Sequence record: PZ445411.1
DNA length: 51,129 nt
Strand: one strand, 5' to 3'
Source of the DNA: a phage
This document shows positions 5,888 to 42,288 of this stretch, piece by piece (within the stretch, counting starts at the first letter, position 1; each line of letters starts with the position of its first letter). The notes under the pieces were generated by a model, which did no database searches, was not told where the DNA came from, and was given only the letters and a program-made list of their open reading frames with translations. The position numbers and the translations under genes are program-made.

Positions 5888-6862
5888 ATGGAAAAAGAAA
5901 AATTTGATCAGCTAGATGCGGATATTGTTTCTAGCTATCTGGCTACTCGCGGAGTTAAGGGTGATGCGTCCGATATGGGCATCTGGACGGCGCAAGAGCT
6001 TCACAAGATCCGCTCAACTGCTTACGAGAAAGAATATCCGGCAGGTTCGGCGCTTCGTGTGTTCCCTGTAACTAATGAGCTTTCTGATACTGATAAAACT
6101 TTTGAATACCAGATGTTTGATAAGGTTGGTTACGCAAAAATTATTGCTGATTACACCGATGACCTGCCGACCGTTGACGCGCTGATGTCTAGCGAATTCG
6201 GTAAAGTGTTCCGCCTGGGTAACGCGTTCTTGATCTCCATTGACGAAATCAAGGCTGGTCAGCGCACTGGTAAGAGCCTTTCCACTCGCAAGGCAAACGC
6301 AGCGCAAAACGCGCATGATCAAGAAGTTAACCGCTTGGTGTTTAAGGGTTCAAAACCGCATAAGATTCTTTCGGTGTTTGAACATCCTAACCTGACAAAG
6401 ATCGTGTCAACTGGCTGGTTAAGTGCTGATGAAAACACCAAGTTCCCACAGGCGGCATCTGATGAACTGGAAAAGGCTATTGAAACCATTCAGACCATCA
6501 CCAATGGTCAGCACCGAGCAACCAACATCCTGATTCCGCCGTCTATGCGCAAGGTCCTTTCCGTTCGAATGGAAAACACCACTGAAAGTTATCTGGAATA
6601 CTTCCAGAAACAAAACAGCGGAATCACTATCGACTCAATCGCAGAGCTTGAGGATATTGATGGCACTGGAACGAAAGGTTGCCTGGTATATGAGAAAGAC
6701 CCGATGAACATGTCGATCGAAATTCCAGAAGCATTTAATATGCTTCCGGCGCAACCAAAAGATCTGCATTTCAAAGTTCCGTGTACTTCAAAATGTACTG
6801 GCCTGACGATTTACCGTCCGTTTACGCTAGTTCTTATTACTGGCTTGAAAAAATCAGGTTAA
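5888..6862 (+). CDS. major capsid protein
   Basis: 324 aa; strong RBS GGAGGAAGAAA-ATG at 5888 (the ORF-track start 5846 lacks an RBS); flanked by terminators; position between scaffold-like and head-tail joining genes. Confidence 0.55.
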   Translation: MEKEKFDQLDADIVSSYLATRGVKGDASDMGIWTAQELHKIRSTAYEKEYPAGSALRVFPVTNELSDTDKTFEYQMFDKVGYAKIIADYTDDLPTVDALMSSEFGKVFRLGNAFLISIDEIKAGQRTGKSLSTRKANAAQNAHDQEVNRLVFKGSKPHKILSVFEHPNLTKIVSTGWLSADENTKFPQAASDELEKAIETIQTITNGQHRATNILIPPSMRKVLSVRMENTTESYLEYFQKQNSGITIDSIAELEDIDGTGTKGCLVYEKDPMNMSIEIPEAFNMLPAQPKDLHFKVPCTSKCTGLTIYRPFTLVLITGLKKSG

Positions 6863-6874
6863 TCGTATAACATT

Positions 6875-6903
6875 GGGGAATCCTTAACTGGATTCCCTTT
6901 TTA
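6875..6903 (+). terminator. rho-independent terminator after major capsid gene
   Basis: GGGAATCC-ttaact-GGATTCCC hairpin then TTTTT. Confidence 0.65.
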
Positions 6904-6917
6904 TTGGAGGTTATGAA

Positions 6918-7190
6918 ATGGCTAAAGAAAAAACTGTAACGCTAAAGGTTTCCGGCGTGTGCCTTATCATTGTTGATGGTGAGCATTATCATCCAGGCAA
7001 AGAGTTTGACGTAGAAGAATCAAAATTGAAAACAAGCGCGTTTGAATATCTAATTGCAAAAGGCGATCTGGAGGTTAAAGACAACTCCGCATTGAACGAA
7101 GAAATAAAACAGAGCGCAGCAAGCAAACGTAAAAAAGACCCGCGAGAGGGCAAGAGCAAAGCCGAACTTGAAGACGGCGGCATCTATTAA
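6918..7190 (+). CDS. hypothetical small virion-module protein
   Basis: 90 aa, RBS GGAGG; charged C-terminus; between two terminator hairpins. Confidence 0.4.
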   Translation: MAKEKTVTLKVSGVCLIIVDGEHYHPGKEFDVEESKLKTSAFEYLIAKGDLEVKDNSALNEEIKQSAASKRKKDPREGKSKAELEDGGIY

Positions 7191-7237
7191 TAAAGAGGGC
7201 GCTATAAGCGCCCTTTGTCATATCTGGAGGAAACAAA

Positions 7238-7654
7238 ATGGTTGATGAACTTTTCACTGACGCAGAAATCACGCAGCAAATCGTGAAATTAGCTCCACCG
7301 ATGAAACAGATTGATCCAGATTTAATGGTGGCATGGATTGACCTGGCAAAGGGATTTGTTTGCAAGAAGCGGTTTAAAGAATCATATCCTAAAGCGGTTG
7401 CCCTTTATACTTTGCACCTTATGACGCTTGACGGAGCTATGAAGCAAGAAGGGGAAAGCGTAGAGAGTTACTCACGGCGCGTGGCGTCATTTTCCCTGAC
7501 TGGTGAATTTAGCCAGACATTTGATCGAGTGTCCGGCGATTCAAGCGGAAAAGAGATTAGACAAACTCCGTGGGGCAAAATGTATGAGACGTTAAATAGA
7601 AAAAAAGGCGGTGGATTTGGCCTTGTGACTGGATTTCGGAGGCGCTGCAAATGA
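7238..7654 (+). CDS. head-tail connector/adaptor candidate
   Basis: 138 aa, RBS GGAGG; first gene of a 4-gene overlapping set between capsid and major tail genes. Confidence 0.4.
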
Positions 7655-8022
7655 ACTATAACGAGATCGCAAGAATGGCAACCGAAGGAATTAACTTCTT
7701 TAGTGATGGCAACGGTGAGTTTAAGTGCATAACGCAGCGTGGAAGCGTTGAAATCATCGGGGGCGAAGAAGTAGAAAAGCCAGAGATTAGTGTAATGATT
7801 AATGGTTTAATTAGATCACCCAAAGTCCGAGAGGTTGACGGCGAGACAATACGAGTAACCGATAAGTTGGGAGTTTTTAACAATAAAGTTGAAATTAAGA
7901 ACGGGTATCATATTGATGTTGATGGTGAATTATATGTTGTAGTTGAAGCAAGACCAATCAGACAAACCAATGTCACTGTTGCTTATCGGCCTATTTTGAG
8001 AAGGATTTCTGTACATGGCTAA
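7651..8022 (+). CDS. head-tail joining protein candidate
   Basis: 123 aa; start overlaps upstream stop (ATGA); synteny. Confidence 0.4.
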
Positions 8023-18500: not shown

Positions 18501-18944
18501 GGAGTTGGCGCACAGTACGCAATGAAACTTGGATTGACATACAACGGGCAGAAGTACAGCGCTGGTATGGTGATGCAGCTTTCGCAGGGTTCATCCGGCC
18601 TTATTTCGCAGATTTTGTTTGATGCGAACAGGTTCGCCATCATGACAAGTTCGACTGGAGGGTCGTATACATTGCCTTTTGTGGTAGAAAATAACCAAGT
18701 TTTCATCAACAGCCTGTTAGTGAAAAACGGATCAATCACAAACGCCATGATCGGTAACTTCATCCAATCAAACAATTACGTTTGGAATCAAGCGGGGTGG
18801 AGGCTGGACAAAAACGGCACGTTTGAAAATTATGGTTCTACTCCTGGAGAGGGGGCCATGAAAATGACAAACGAAACGATCAGCGTTAGGGATGCAAACG
18901 GAGTTTTGCGTGTTCAGATTGGTAGGCTGACTGGTGCGTGGTAA
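15519..18944 (+). CDS. central tail fibre / host specificity protein (lambda J-like)
   Basis: 1141 aa; long stretches match remembered lambda J sequence (NYDPxxREYHGSWDGTFKxAWSNNPAWVLYD, DKWSLYEAAQYCDQKVPDGKGGTEPRY). Confidence 0.9.
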   Translation: MAENMITGSKGGSSKPYVPKEMEDNLISINKIKILLAVSDGECDPDFTLRDLYLDDVPVIADDGTVNYQGVKAEFRPGTQTQDYIQGFTDTSSEVTLARDITTSNPYVISVTNKTLSAIRIKMLMPTGIKQEDNGDLVGVKVTYAVDMAVDGDSYKEVLLDTIEGKTRSGYDRSRRIDLPAFNDRVLLRVRRVTADSTSSRVTDLIKLQSYAEVIDAKFRYPLTGLVYVEFDSELFPNQIPNISIKKKWKLINVPSNYDPVMREYHGSWDGTFKKAWSNNPAWVLYDIITNQRYGLDQRELGVQVDKWSLYEAAQYCDQKVPDGKGGTEPRYLCDVVIQSQIEAYQLIRDICSIFRGMSFWNGESLSIVIDKPRDPSYIFTNDNVVDGDFQYTTASEKSMYTQCNVTFDDEQNMYQQDVEGVFDTEAALRFGYNPTSITAIGCTRRSEANRRGRWILKTNLRSTTVNFATGLEGMIPSIGDVIAIADNFHSSNLKLNLSGRVMEVSGLQVFAPFKIDARPGDFIIINKPDGKPVKRTISKVSGDGKTIELNIGFGFDVKPDTVFAIDRTDIALQQYVVTSIGKGDDDDEFTYSITAVEYDPNKYDEIDYGVNIDDRPTSIVQPDTMAAPENVQISSYSRIVQGASVETMVVSWDKVPYASLYEMQWRKGDGNWLNTPQTANKEIEVEGIYSGNYQVRVRSVSASGSTSPWSRIVTASLTGKVGEPGAPVNLTASDNEVFGIRVKWGMPEGSGDTAYIELHQSPDGTAENSSLLTLIPYPQYEYWHGTLPAGHVVWYRIRSVDRIGNVSGWTDFVRGMASDDVEAVLGDILDKIFDTEAGKDLKENAIDSANKIKDQAQSIIQNALANDADVRIMRKENGKRKAEFRQSIQLIANETEARVTAMTQLKAEFDEEITSEVTRLDQAIATESETRATAIEELKSQIGDDIQGQLTRVEEAIASETEARVSADTALTAKFGDVESALAEKLDSWAGVNGVGAQYAMKLGLTYNGQKYSAGMVMQLSQGSSGLISQILFDANRFAIMTSSTGGSYTLPFVVENNQVFINSLLVKNGSITNAMIGNFIQSNNYVWNQAGWRLDKNGTFENYGSTPGEGAMKMTNETISVRDANGVLRVQIGRLTGAW

Positions 18945-18987
18945 AATCAAAGCGGGGCGCTTGCCCCGCATTTATGGAGGTTTAATA

Positions 18988-19293
18988 ATGGCTGAGTATG
19001 GAATTTCAACGTGGGATGCAAACGGTAATTATAATAACTATGGGATCAAGCCTGTTTCAGTTGTTGGTATCATTTTTTTAAGTCAAGGCCAAACAAGTGG
19101 ATCTTGGTCCTTTACAATACCAAGCGGGATGAAAGTAGGATTCGCAATTGCTCTTGATCAAGGTGATGTTGGCGTGGGGAGGAATATAGTAGCATCAGGA
19201 AATACAATAAAAGTTTCACCTGCAAGTAACGTTGGGCCTGGAAATTATGCTGCGTCTGCTTGTGAATTGGTAGTTTTTGTGGAGAAATCTTAA
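18988..19293 (+). CDS. hypothetical tail-tip / host-range module protein
   Basis: 101 aa from ATG 18988 with RBS GGAGG; visibly AT-rich; N-terminus (YGISTWDANGNY) resembles an internal segment of the next ORF (YGMAIWDEGGTC). Confidence 0.4.
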   Translation: MAEYGISTWDANGNYNNYGIKPVSVVGIIFLSQGQTSGSWSFTIPSGMKVGFAIALDQGDVGVGRNIVASGNTIKVSPASNVGPGNYAASACELVVFVEKS

Positions 19294-19294
19294 T

Positions 19295-19966
19295 ATGAGT
19301 TACGGTGCTTTATTAAATCTTAATAACGGCAATCCATTTGTTACGCCAAATTCAACGCCTTTTGTATTATATAAAAAAGTAAATGTATCATCTTCCGCTA
19401 ACGGAGTTTTTCAATCAGCATCAACTAATATTCAAATCAGTTCAAGTTATCCGGCAATAGCATTTTTGAAAACAACTTACACAGCACAACCAACAACAGT
19501 TGGATCAAGAAGAAATGGAGACAGTATAGTTGTTAGCTCAAGCAATCCATTTGGTCAATCACACACTTTAACAGCTTATGTTTTTGCAAGATTCCCTCAG
19601 CCATTGCCAAAATATGGAATGGCAATTTGGGATGAAGGAGGGACGTGTATATTAACAAATGAATCAAAGGTTTTAACAGATCTAGTGACCATTGGGACAC
19701 CTGGAGTTAATGGTGGTATAAATATAGATGAAACGTTATCAGGAAGTTATGCAGTATCACCAGGAATATTGGGTTCTACTCTAATTAGATTTTTTGTTCA
19801 AGGTCAACCACAGGTGATTTCTATTACTGCATACACAGGAGCCAGGTTTAACGGGTCAACAACAAGAATATCAGCAGCAAGCGGTAATAATGCAACTGGA
19901 TCTGTTGTTGGATATACAAATAATGGCAATGCAATAACAGCCATAAAGACTGACATTTACGACTAA
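19295..19966 (+). CDS. hypothetical tail-tip / receptor-binding candidate
   Basis: 223 aa from ATG 19295 with RBS GGAG; Ser/Thr/Asn/Gly-rich, AT-rich coding; last gene before a bidirectional terminator. Confidence 0.4.
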   Translation: MSYGALLNLNNGNPFVTPNSTPFVLYKKVNVSSSANGVFQSASTNIQISSSYPAIAFLKTTYTAQPTTVGSRRNGDSIVVSSSNPFGQSHTLTAYVFARFPQPLPKYGMAIWDEGGTCILTNESKVLTDLVTIGTPGVNGGINIDETLSGSYAVSPGILGSTLIRFFVQGQPQVISITAYTGARFNGSTTRISAASGNNATGSVVGYTNNGNAITAIKTDIYD

Positions 19967-19968
19967 TG

Positions 19969-20000
19969 AAAAAGGGGGGGGGCTTTCGCCCCTTTGTTTT
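19969..20000. terminator. bidirectional terminator between convergent genes (contains a 9-G homopolymer)
   Basis: AAAAAGGGGGGGGG-cttt-CGCCCCTTTGTTTTT; A-run on one side, T-run on the other. Confidence 0.6.
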
Positions 20001-20003
20001 TAT

Positions 20004-20231
20004 TTACAGACTGCAATCAGCGTTTTTAAAGTTATCAATGCTTACCCACTGAAAATTAAACGGATAGCCAGCCTTAACAATAGTGCGGTCGCCAACTCGT
20101 TTTACTCCAAAAATAGCAACTGAATACTGCATACCGCTATTTTCATAAATAGCCGTGCATTCACGCTTAGGCATATTTGCACATCCAGTCAGTGTAACGG
20201 TTGCAATCAAAACGGCGATTAACTTTTTCAT
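20004..20231 (-). CDS. lipoprotein, Llp-like superinfection-exclusion candidate
   Basis: 75 aa; signal peptide with lipobox LTGC; overall pattern resembles T5 Llp as I recall it; RBS AAGGAG. Confidence 0.5.
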   Translation of the reverse strand: MKKLIAVLIATVTLTGCANMPKRECTAIYENSGMQYSVAIFGVKRVGDRTIVKAGYPFNFQWVSIDNFKNADCSL

Positions 20232-20262
20232 GTTGGTATCTCCTTAGTTGTTGTTGGTTGCA

Positions 20263-20304
20263 ACTATACACGATCTTGCGGTGGGCGTTTAGCAAAAAGT
20301 GCTA
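20263..20304 (-). promoter_or_regulatory. conserved box variant + TATAGT cassette upstream of Llp-like lipoprotein gene (minus strand)
   Basis: Minus strand TAGCACTTTTTGCTAAAC, 20 nt, TATAGT, then RBS AAGGAG and ATG 20231. Confidence 0.45.
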
Positions 20305-20415
20305 TTCTGTTCCTTTTGTTCTCCGGTGTTCTCAAATCTGCGGAGGCTTAAATTTAGCTCAAAAAGTGAACAGTAATAGAGCGCTATACATACGAATAAA
20401 TATATATACATACAT

Positions 20416-20455
20416 ATAAATCAATAAGTTAGTGGTATATATATTTATATTTGTT
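20416..20455. repeat. conserved AT-rich segment, copy A (partner at 42248-42288)
   Basis: ATAAATCAATAAGTTAGTGGTATATATATTTATATTTGTT; about 90% identical to copy B; followed by GT-rich degenerate repeats to about 20540. Confidence 0.6.
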
Positions 20456-20675
20456 TTTTCTTGTTATCTATGTTTTGTGTGATTTTGTGTGTCTGGTGAT
20501 TTTTATGTGGTTGTGTATGTGTCAGTGTTTGTGTGCGTCTATATATCTATATCCGTCGCAAATGTAGGAACAAGAGAACAAAAAGACAACAAAGATATTT
20601 ATCAATCACTTACATGTAAATTTTGTTATCCGATTCGTCAGGAACGTTGTTAGAACAGAAAAAACAAAATAACTG

Positions 20676-20703
20676 TTGACTAAACGCATTAAATAGCTAA
20701 AAT
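20676..20703 (+). promoter_or_regulatory. sigma70-like promoter for the rightward recombination module
   Basis: TTGACT (20676-20681), 16-nt spacer, TAAAAT (20698-20703); 30 nt upstream of the exonuclease ATG. Confidence 0.5.
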
Positions 20704-20732
20704 GCAGGTATACCAACTAATGAGGGCAAATC

Positions 20733-21794
20733 ATGAATAAGTTTATGGCGTACACCAGCGAAGAAATGAGCAACGAGCTTTATCACGATCCAGAAGCGTG
20801 GACTGCTGATTATGTTAGCGGATCAAGCTTGGCAGAGATTTACAGCACATGCCCGGCAGCGTGGAAGTTCAAGCCGCGTGACGATAAGAGCAAGGCGCTA
20901 GTTTTTGGTACGCAGTCGCATACCAACTTTGAAAGCAAGGAGCTTTTCGAAAAAACATATCGCCGTGCGCCAGCGCCAGAAGACTTTAAGGATCTGATAA
21001 CCAGCCAAACGGCGCTTGCTGCAAAGCTGAAATCATTTGGCCTGAAAGGTACAACAGGAAAGACTTATCCAGACCTTATCAAAATGATGGTGGATTGCGG
21101 AGAAGACCTTAACGTTATGTGGTTGATTGAGATGATCGCAGAAAGTCAGGCCAGGGCAGATGGAGTTCAGTTAATCGAAGCCAAAGATTACGATGCGTGC
21201 GAGGCAATGCGCCAGGTTCTTGAATCAATACCTGAACATAACGCATGTATGAATAGCAAGACAGCACAACGTGAATTATCGCTGTTCGGTGAAATTAACG
21301 GCGTAAAAGTCAAGGTTCGATGCGATCACGTTGACGTAACAAAGAACGTCACCGCAACCCTGATTGATGGTTACGATGAAAAAGGTCAGCCGATTTGTCG
21401 AGATATTATTTATCCAGAGGCTATTGTGATCACTGACTACAAAACAACAATGAGCGCCAATCCGGTTGAGTTTATGCGCTTGGCTTACAATCACGGCTAT
21501 TATTTAAAAATGGCGTTGCAATGTGATTTATTTAGGAAAGCGTATCCAGAAGAAAAGCGACCTATAGTTGTGCGACTGTTAGCGCAAGAGAAGAAAGAGC
21601 CTTATTTGCCGTTGGCTTTCCGCATGAATAGCGAGCAGTTGAAGATCGGGCGCATTCAGTACATGAGCGTGATTAACCAGTTTGCCATGTGCCAGCAACA
21701 TGACGTTTGGCCTTCGTATTCAAACGGTGAGCCTGAGGTTTGCCTTGATACTCCTGATTGGGTGCGCCGCCAGTTTAAGCAATATCTTATTTAA
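20733..21794 (+). CDS. PD-(D/E)XK recombination exonuclease
   Basis: 353 aa; motifs RCDHVD and ITDYKT fit a PD-(D/E)xK nuclease; upstream of Erf-like and SSB genes. Confidence 0.55.
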   Translation: MNKFMAYTSEEMSNELYHDPEAWTADYVSGSSLAEIYSTCPAAWKFKPRDDKSKALVFGTQSHTNFESKELFEKTYRRAPAPEDFKDLITSQTALAAKLKSFGLKGTTGKTYPDLIKMMVDCGEDLNVMWLIEMIAESQARADGVQLIEAKDYDACEAMRQVLESIPEHNACMNSKTAQRELSLFGEINGVKVKVRCDHVDVTKNVTATLIDGYDEKGQPICRDIIYPEAIVITDYKTTMSANPVEFMRLAYNHGYYLKMALQCDLFRKAYPEEKRPIVVRLLAQEKKEPYLPLAFRMNSEQLKIGRIQYMSVINQFAMCQQHDVWPSYSNGEPEVCLDTPDWVRRQFKQYLI

Positions 21795-21875: not shown

Positions 21876-22154
21876 ATGGAAAACAAGCAAGTGTCAGAGG
21901 TGGCAGTTCATATCAACAATTTTGCAACTGGCATGGCTATGTTGCTTCGTGACTTTGTGGCGCCACTTGATCCAACTGCAGGCGAAGAAGAAATGGAGTA
22001 CATCAGAAAAGTAATTGATGCTGTAGATAACGTCGTACTTATTGCAACAATGAGCGAAGACAACGATGAAGCAATCAAGGCGGTAAAAGAAAGTTCTGAT
22101 CGCATGATGGAAAATCTGATTAAATTACACACCAAAGAAGAAACAAAGCACTAA
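21876..22154 (+). CDS. acidic hypothetical protein
   Basis: 92 aa, RBS GAGGAAA; strongly acidic; sits between exonuclease and annealase genes. Confidence 0.5.
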   Translation: MENKQVSEVAVHINNFATGMAMLLRDFVAPLDPTAGEEEMEYIRKVIDAVDNVVLIATMSEDNDEAIKAVKESSDRMMENLIKLHTKEETKH

Positions 22155-41872: not shown

Positions 41873-41911
41873 TTTACTGTCTCCTGATGGGTATCTCGTT
41901 TCGATGTGTCT

Positions 41912-41954
41912 AATGTACCCGATCAGGCGGATTCAGTTTTAACAAAAAGTGCTA
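41912..41954 (-). promoter_or_regulatory. conserved box + TACATT cassette (minus strand)
   Basis: Minus strand TAGCACTTTTTGTTAAAAC, 22 nt, TACATT; lies in the 3' end of ORF 41923-42210. Confidence 0.45.
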
Positions 41955-42210
41955 TTTGCTGACTGGTCATTATTCCATCTATTCCATTAATCAGGAATAA
42001 CAGGAATAACTCATTCTCGATCACCTGGATTGTGAGACTTTGAGTTTGATCAATTTTAATCAGGTGATTAACTTTTTGTGTGGAGGGGATAGAGAAACAC
42101 GGCCCTCTTGCATCCTTTCCTGCAATCATGGCGCGCGCATCTGTTATTTCTGTTCTCCGTGTTATCTCAAATAAGCCTCCGCACTTTGAGATAACAGAAA
42201 CGGCGTTCAT
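41923..42210 (-). CDS. hypothetical protein (first gene of the leftward block; start uncertain)
   Basis: Open frame ends at 41923; no convincing RBS for ATG 42210 or 42249; a conserved box lies in its 3' end where it encodes IALFVKT. Confidence 0.3.
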   Translation of the reverse strand: MNAVSVISKCGGLFEITRRTEITDARAMIAGKDARGPCFSIPSTQKVNHLIKIDQTQSLTIQVIENELFLLFLINGIDGIMTSQQIALFVKTESA

Positions 42211-42247
42211 CAACAAAAAGAACAAAATAAAATTTATATATATACCC

Positions 42248-42288
42248 ATAAAATCAATAAGTTAGTTATATATGTATTTATATTTGTT
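42248..42288. repeat. conserved AT-rich segment, copy B (partner at 20416-20455)
   Basis: ATAAAATCAATAAGTTAGTTATATATGTATTTATATTTGTT; followed by GT-rich degenerate repeats to about 42420. Confidence 0.6.

Follow-up and report, generated by a model that had tools for sequence, protein, structure and literature searches.

The locus described here lies at positions 18988 to 20231 of PZ445411.1, a phage sequence of 51,129 nucleotides (nt) that was analysed at its full length and is referred to below as the window. It comprises two small open reading frames (ORFs), ORF-A and ORF-B (A and B), which follow the gene of the J-like central tail fibre (J) on the same strand, and a convergent gene for a lipoprotein of 75 amino acids (aa), Cor. 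The phage is a Hanrivervirus (Drexlerviridae, Tempevirinae), a T1-like siphovirus, and megablast of the segment 18900-20750 showed 98.3% identity to Salmonella phage slyngel and 95-96% identity to Escherichia phages PGN590 and EC147. The gene order is J, a 43-nt spacer, ORF-A, ORF-B, a hairpin, cor on the minus strand, a 500-bp AT-rich spacer, and exoVIII. ORF-B (19295-19966, 223 aa) starts one base past the stop of ORF-A. A, B, and cor coincide with the RefSeq gene calls of slyngel, and the coordinates given for them in a first-pass annotation, made from the letters alone, were exact.

The locus is the known FhuA-type host-recognition module of T1-like siphoviruses, in which A and B follow J and are joined by Cor (Table 1). 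As a type of locus it is ordinary and already known, and so is the phage lineage. The evidence favours three additions to this picture: A and B are receptor-binding proteins (RBPs) rather than helpers of superinfection exclusion, together they look like a split RBP of the DUF6453 type, and only A and B, not cor, have been exchanged.

Table 1. Features of the J-A-B-cor locus in the window
Feature	Coordinates	Strand	Basis or content
J-like central tail fibre, 1141 aa	15519..18944	+	Pfam FNIII-A_GpJ, Phage-tail_3, Phage_Tail_Tip; phrog_31
GC-rich hairpin GCGGGGC-GCTT-GCCCCGC in the J/ORF-A spacer	18952..18969		terminator-like scan and sequence
ORF-A, 101 aa	18988..19293	+	N-terminal beta-hairpin YGISTWDANG, then 6-strand beta-sandwich; phrog_557
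ORF-B N-terminal unit, aa 1-104	19295..19606	+	hairpin YGALLNLNNG and 7-strand beta-sandwich; conserved half
ORF-B second hairpin YGMAIWDEGG and variable C-terminal domain, aa 105-223	19607..19966	+	proposed FhuA-contacting part
Exchanged allele block of low GC, covering B in full and the greater part of A	19030..19965		drop in nucleotide identity against herni
Bidirectional terminator-like hairpin between convergent ORF-B and cor	19976..19995		called on both strands, T-runs on each side
Cor lipoprotein, 75 aa: signal peptide, lipobox LTGC, Cys25, Cys73, AGYPF	20004..20231	-	NCBIfam NF047972, phrog_1119

Composition, fold, and genomic partners of ORF-A and ORF-B

Both proteins are rich in Ser, Thr, Gly, and Asn, as the first-pass annotation had noticed. 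These residues make up a fraction of 0.376 in A and 0.417 in B, the highest value among 31 long ORFs (mean 0.243, standard deviation 0.048). The segment YG(I/M)(S/A)xWD(A/E)xG, which had been reported as common to the two, is real: it reads YGISTWDANG at residues 4-13 of A and YGMAIWDEGG at residues 107-116 of B (BLASTP E 0.021), and each family conserves the motif YGxxxWDxxG, for which a comparison of the two profiles gave E 1.4e-4 across 13 columns. Outside the motif, a weak colinear hhalign alignment of 78 columns joins A to the N-terminal half of B (E 4e-4, probability 35%). A relationship between the two proteins is thereby modestly supported. ORF-A holds one hairpin motif, and its conservation is highest over the first 25 residues; ORF-B holds two hairpin-plus-sandwich units, with motifs at residues 4-13 and 107-116. 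AlphaFold2 models A and B confidently as soluble all-beta structures, with a predicted local distance difference test score of 88.2 and 91.5, respectively.

Over their whole lengths, A matches phrog_557 (E 2.2e-31) and B matches phrog_425 (E 1.4e-67). PHROG labels A an "outer membrane" protein and B a "membrane associated" protein, and places B in the category "moron, auxiliary metabolic gene and host takeover". No signal peptide, membrane segment, or hydrophobic stretch was found in either protein (maximum 19-residue hydropathy 0.92 and 1.09), and the N-termini, MAEYGIST... in A and MSYGALLN... in B, are no signal sequences. This absence, together with the soluble beta-sandwich models, rules out that A and B are membrane proteins, and their database names are misleading. 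Pfam and NCBIfam hold no family for A or B, and Pfam gave none even at E<=10. From BFVD, Foldseek retrieved 18 phage proteins, about 220-260 aa long, that adopt the same fold (template modelling score 0.4-0.6); since none of them has been characterised, they offer no function to transfer. H-type lectin domains (Helix pomatia agglutinin 2ccv, SLL-2 3wmp) gave marginal scores at about 10% identity, which is a resemblance of fold only.

The gene neighbourhood ties the pair to J. The C-terminal Phage_Tail_Tip domain of J covers aa 983-1118 (Pfam E 1.2e-40), and this domain with the terminal ...ISVRDANGVLRVQIGRLTGAW tail is proposed as the docking platform for A and B. Across Dhillonvirus, N15, and Tunavirus, the last 80 aa of J are its best-conserved part, with 57-75% identity versus 18-55% in the preceding segments. 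Within the tail, the stretch ...ISVRDANGVLRV... resembles the A hairpin GISTWDANG, and we speculate that the hairpins may mediate docking of unit to unit, the J tail included. A phrog_557/phrog_425 pair of adjacent genes lies directly downstream of a J-like gene with Phage_Tail_Tip in 6 reference and 4 metagenomic or genomic loci, and in N15 the genes J, gp22, and gp23 overlap at their stop and start codons. A B profile search of 1.84 billion proteins yielded 173 clusters. In the three distant loci examined, a J-like gene is followed by an A-like gene (94-118 aa) and then a B-like gene, and this order, in which the starts overlap, is seen again in distant loci as well as in N15.

A natural A-B fusion of 322 aa (P0397) was found in a metagenomic phage, in two independent assemblies. 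It matches phrog_557 over residues 1-83 (E 4.7e-12) and phrog_425 over residues 106-319 (E 1.1e-20), and hhalign of the A family against it gave E 2.4e-5. Its gene stands directly after that of a protein with a C-terminal Phage_Tail_Tip domain, which ends like J of the window. About 30 distant full-length relatives of B match the profile at positions 1 to ~130 only, so the N-terminal half of B is the constant part and the C-terminal domain is exchangeable, as expected if the C-terminal domain contacts the receptor. A further predicted protein from outside the window (P0294, 337 aa) resembles the fn3/coiled-coil part of a J fibre in its N-terminal half and matches residues 53-224 of ORF-B in its C-terminal half; it is either a chimera of assembly or gene calling, or a natural J-B fusion.

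The distribution of the genes, counted over 50,697 phage records, bears on a proposal made for KanT1/T1, in which A and B are non-virion, membrane-associated helpers of Cor in superinfection exclusion. A occurs in 345 records and B in 348, a near-identical distribution in which each has 177 Escherichia and 111 Klebsiella records. Cor occurs in 633 records, only 5 of them from Klebsiella and about 250 from T5-like phages without A or B. No more than five of the 111 Klebsiella records with both A and B have a detectable Cor, and in the Weberviruses SegesCirculi and Roth96, J-A-B is followed directly by a reverse-strand fibre gene, which leaves no room for cor. A and B without Cor in Klebsiella phages, and Cor or Llp without A and B in hundreds of T5-like phages, show that the pair and Cor are separable. 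This speaks against a helper of Cor, for which one can cite that A and B adjoin cor in Drexlerviridae, Dhillonvirus, and lambdoid phages, besides the PHROG labels and category and the suggestion in PMC13164509. A and B also share the strand of J, with which they overlap in N15, whereas cor is convergent in T1-like phages; they lack the signal peptide or hydrophobic segment of a membrane-associated protein, and B shows the fold of a proven RBP, as described below. We consider the helper role highly improbable. Distribution, synteny, and fusion suggest that A and B act together and belong with J, not with cor.

A characterised counterpart is offered by the DUF6453 RBPs (PF20051, phrog_1265), which include Rtp44 and the Oekolampad RBP (PDB 9rpt), and of which one has been seen by cryogenic electron microscopy (cryo-EM) in direct receptor contact (PMC12685063). 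A plus B and the DUF6453 proteins have the same fold and the same repeated hairpin-plus-sandwich architecture, in which the hairpin motif opens each unit. Together, A and B make three units in 324 aa; single-chain DUF6453 proteins make three units in 311-321 aa, and Rtp44 has three hairpin motifs at about residues 4, 116, and 208. A distant B-like protein (P0398) forms a bridge, as it matches phrog_425 with E 5.5e-13 and phrog_1265, the family of Rtp44, with E 1.4e-5, and hhalign places the B family in register with DUF6453 at E 0.0021. The signal came only from comparisons at the level of families or units and from this PHROG bridge. The Pfam DUF6453 model (PF20051) matched neither A nor B and scored Rtp44 at E 1.4e-113, hhalign of the B profile with the single Rtp44 sequence had a probability of 1% and no usable signal, and neither A against whole DUF6453 nor DUF6453 against the fusion P0397 gave a usable signal.

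B thus shares its fold with a proven RBP, and its reading as an RBP is also supported by the PHROG bridge, the in-register hhalign match, and the swapped C-terminal domain in distant relatives. That A and B form a split three-unit RBP of the DUF6453 type goes further, and we give this idea an even chance. The DUF6453 RBPs, which LptD-targeting relatives encode at the corresponding place, are one chain, whereas two genes of 101 and 223 aa are found here. The DUF6453 RBPs are encoded on the strand opposite to J, in an operon with their own lipoprotein, and bind LptD; A and B are co-directional with J, only cor is convergent, and the pair is read as FhuA-type. Rtp45 (phrog_4281), the lipoprotein partner of Rtp44, is of another family than Cor and acts by steric displacement; a comparison of Rtp45 with Cor gave a marginal match (E 0.0098). 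In phage Rtp, rtp44 and rtp45 form one operon at 6753-7918 on the strand opposite to J, an LptD-type module.

The Cor lipoprotein and its probable relation to T5 Llp

The lipoprotein MKKLIAVLIATVTLTGC has the lipobox LTGC with Cys17 and two further cysteines, Cys25 and Cys73; position +2 is Ala, a residue compatible with sorting to the outer membrane. Its length, its convergent orientation, its lipobox, and its two further cysteines are all as the first-pass annotation had given them. The NCBIfam equivalog NF047972 (lamb_exclu_cor) matches over the full length 1-73 with 69.2 bits against a cutoff of 31, and phrog_1119 matches with E 7.6e-28. Cys25, Cys73, and A54-G55-Y56-P57-F58 are invariant across five diverse Cor sequences. 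From these matches the protein is assigned to Cor, a family of superinfection-exclusion proteins, and not to Llp proper.

The likeness to T5 Llp given in the first-pass annotation holds as probable distant homology. Llp (8a60_B) is the top PDB match of the single sequence (E 0.085, full length, cysteines in register) and again that of a five-sequence Cor profile (E 0.004), with part of the match due to the signal peptide. With Cor as the query, tblastn also picked up genes annotated as llp in T5-like phages, with an identity of about 33% and E values of 4e-4 to 2e-3. This fits a view of Cor and Llp as distant relatives with the same Cys pattern in one superfamily. The relation between Cor and Llp and the mechanism by which Llp acts on FhuA have been described (PMC9586334, PMC13164509, bioRxiv 10.64898/2026.03.26.714494). 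By analogy, Cor would work like Llp and inactivate FhuA after infection. Its proposed role as a receptor-blocking superinfection-exclusion protein is supported by family membership, probable homology to Llp, and the literature. The pair pb5 and Llp of T5 (PDB 8a8c, 8a60) follows the same logic, an RBP for FhuA beside a small outer membrane (OM) lipoprotein that blocks FhuA periplasmically, and Llp and Cor, as probable distant homologues, appear to have the disulfide Cys pair in common. In T5, llp adjoins a pb5-type RBP, whereas cor of the window has no pb5-type neighbour.

Exchange of the A-B block and choice of receptor

A and B are more AT-rich than their flanks, in agreement with the first observation made on this region. 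The GC content is 0.402 in A, 0.363 in B, and 0.395 in cor, against 0.455 in each of J and exoVIII and 0.439 in the window. At third codon positions (GC3) it is 0.265 in A, 0.192 in B, and 0.449 in J. Sliding windows place the 1244-nt region 18988-20231 in the lowest 1.2% of GC among windows of equal size. Protein identity to the congener herni is 97.5-99.7% for J and 94.7% for Cor, and it is 71% for A and 56-59% for B. At the nucleotide level, identity to herni is 93-100% until about position 19030, 43-78% until about 19965, and about 97% from the terminator on. The left boundary falls at about codon 14 of A, just beyond the hairpin motif, and the block coincides with the low-GC stretch. At the nucleotide level, megablast found this A-B allele in common only with slyngel, PGN590, and EC147. 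These comparisons indicate that, relative to congeners, the A-B block has been horizontally exchanged and that J and cor have not.

The region had been read as a horizontally acquired cassette of receptor binding and receptor blocking. The acquisition stands for A and B; cor, at 94.7% identity to herni, lies outside the exchanged block, and the two parts are separable across phages. With this exception, the earlier reading was largely right. Because only A and B were replaced and J and cor were kept, A-B can be argued to be the exchangeable specificity cassette, with a single Cor sufficing for more than one allele of A-B. Base composition has not equilibrated, which makes the acquisition a fairly recent one. 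The C-terminal domain of B is 85% identical in amino acids to that of Dhillonvirus Over9000. A recent transfer of B from a Dhillonvirus is ruled out by the absence of a nucleotide match and by the GC3 of 0.19 versus 0.62, and the same two observations point to a donor in some AT-rich lineage.

A small gene downstream of a fibre gene frequently encodes a chaperone, and it may be asked whether the C-terminus of J is the real binder of FhuA, with A and B as chaperones or assembly factors of the J tip, comparable to the tail-fibre assembly proteins of other phages, that are absent from the mature particle or dispensable in it. One study treats J itself as the RBP (PMC10373560), and the cryo-EM map of T1, in which the distal fibre is unresolved, is structurally compatible with this (PMC11945409). 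J of the window is nevertheless 97.5-99.7% identical to that of herni while A and B were exchanged, which makes A and B the diversifying element, as expected of the part that contacts the receptor. In distant relatives it is the C-terminal domain of B that is swapped, B has fold homology to a protein in receptor contact by cryo-EM (PMC12685063), and AlphaFold complexes of a probable B homologue with FhuA have been published (PMC12629751; 10.64898/2026.04.02.716166). A binding role confined to J therefore seems unlikely.

That A and B are tail-tip RBPs, most likely binding FhuA, is the best reading of the pair, which the first-pass annotation had likewise called related distal tail proteins with a receptor-binding function; their presence in the virion is inferred, as are the role of A as the adaptor to J and FhuA as the target of this allele. 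The receptor assignment is taken from the literature. Across Drexlerviridae and relatives, receptor use correlates with the locus downstream of gpJ and can be predicted from it (PMC8594841; bioRxiv 10.64898/2026.04.02.716166). FhuA is the receptor of each of the 10 BASEL phages that combine Cor with A and B (PMC13164509), and Dhillonvirus Teewinot and Hanrivervirus JLBYU41 are FhuA-dependent (PMC10373560); B of the window is 71% identical to that of Teewinot. Weberviruses depend on FhuA, two proteins of Roth93 are absent from a FhuA-independent relative, and AlphaFold complexes of these two with FhuA gave an interface predicted template modelling score of 0.75 for gp54 and 0.45 for gp53 (PMC12629751). 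Judging by gene numbers, gp54 and gp53 are probably the homologues of B and A. The "cor cassette" of T1, phi80, N15 (gp22-gp23-Cor), HK022, ES18, Dhillonvirus, and other Drexlerviridae contains the same three families in the same order after J (PMC8594841; PMC13164509), and has the same association with FhuA-dependent phages as the locus in the window. Two differences were found: cor is co-directional in N15 and convergent here, and the A-B allele of the window is unusually AT-rich, with sharing at the nucleotide level limited to slyngel, PGN590, and EC147.

A further alternative concerns the receptor. A and B could be an RBP complex whose divergent allele has left FhuA for another receptor, or is specific for a Salmonella-type variant of FhuA, beside a mismatched Cor. 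Compared with the allele of congeners that depend on FhuA, B reaches only 56-59% identity, the block is of foreign base composition, the closest record was isolated on Salmonella, and BtuB is the receptor of a few phages that have a Cor-like protein (PMC13164509). We think this quite unlikely, in view of the 85% identity of the C-terminal domain of B to Over9000 and of the 71% identity of whole B to the FhuA-dependent Teewinot (PMC10373560), the use of FhuA by every BASEL phage with the Cor, A, and B triad (PMC13164509), and the intact Cor retained beside the allele.

Under the preferred reading, with A and B as FhuA binders, the two proteins would be assembled on the tip of J as three units, each made of a hairpin ([YW]G-x-x-I-[WF]-[DN]-x-x-G) and a beta-sandwich. 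A would be unit 1, the J-proximal, conserved adaptor whose N-terminal part contacts the conserved C-terminal tail of J, and B would supply units 2 and 3. The variable C-terminal domain of B would bind the extracellular face of the OM transporter FhuA, and this binding would commit the phage to DNA ejection. Cor, convergently transcribed and made in the infected cell, would bind FhuA on its periplasmic side and, as T5 Llp does, force its extracellular loops into a shape that the phage cannot bind. Such an action would protect the infected cell and keep progeny off debris.

Several points weigh against this scheme. We found no direct evidence of A or B in a virion, here or in the literature searched, and the receptor of slyngel, PGN590, and EC147, which carry this exact allele, is unreported in that literature. 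The virion proteome of Sfin-1 (PMC6714547) is uninformative on A and B, as Sfin-1 is an LptD-type phage and many non-structural proteins are listed. PDB sequence searches with A, B, and the B profile gave no match, and no member of the A or B family has a solved structure. In a 2026 study, fold searches with A and B gave no match and an exclusion role was put forward (PMC13164509), and the treatment of J as the RBP in PMC10373560 also counts here. The sequence links to DUF6453 are weak: the hhalign probability is 14% for B, and A against DUF6453 unit 1 gave E 0.011 with a probability of 4%, so the assignment of A to unit 1 comes mainly from the fusion and the architecture. On balance, we regard the FhuA-type module as a whole, with A and B as FhuA binders at the tail tip on J and Cor as the protein that blocks FhuA afterwards, as likely.

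Surrounding features and biological meaning

The hairpin at 18952-18969, between J and ORF-A, has a perfect GC stem of 7 bp. The scan calls it as a terminator of the minus strand; for plus-strand transcription, it could act as an attenuator of read-through to A and B. It is absent from N15, where J, gp22, and gp23 overlap. An Rfam scan of 18800-20900 returned nothing credible. Between cor and exoVIII (plus strand), positions 20232-20732 are a gene-free stretch of 500 bp with a GC content of 0.33 and a minimum of 0.287. It contains short TA- and TG-rich repeats and a good sigma-70-like site, TTGACT-16-TAAAAT, at 20676-20703 on the plus strand, and is probably a divergent early regulatory region. 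Its identity to herni is 83-100%, so it lies outside the exchanged block.

Other observations concern records and regions beyond the locus. Among the 62 records that match 18900-20750 by megablast, 18 are named "Campylobacter phage" (e.g. MG065636, MG065637); they are about 91% identical to the coliphage Hanrivervirus sequence, and their host labels look wrong. The slyngel RefSeq homologue of a 92-aa ORF in the recombination cluster (21876-22154) is labelled "tail length tape measure protein", which is implausible given its size and position. A second AT-rich island of the window, at about 41900-42250 (GC ~0.35), holds a 108-aa ORF with a hydrophobic N-terminus (41923-42249, minus strand).

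The locus decides which OM receptor is used by T1-like phages, Dhillonvirus, and several lambdoid phages. It is the part to exchange for retargeting a phage, or to inspect for predicting the receptor from sequence, and the window is a clean natural example, with two small genes replaced and J and cor unchanged. Recent papers disagree on whether A and B are RBPs or exclusion helpers; the evidence of fold and fusion helps to settle this and favours receptor binding. If A and B are indeed a split DUF6453 RBP, the FhuA- and LptD-binding modules downstream of gpJ, called unrelated families in a 2026 preprint, would share one ancestor built of repeated hairpin and beta-sandwich units. The units may then dock via the conserved hairpin, a common plug-in mechanism in which small siphophages would exchange receptor specificity by a swap of A and B alone.

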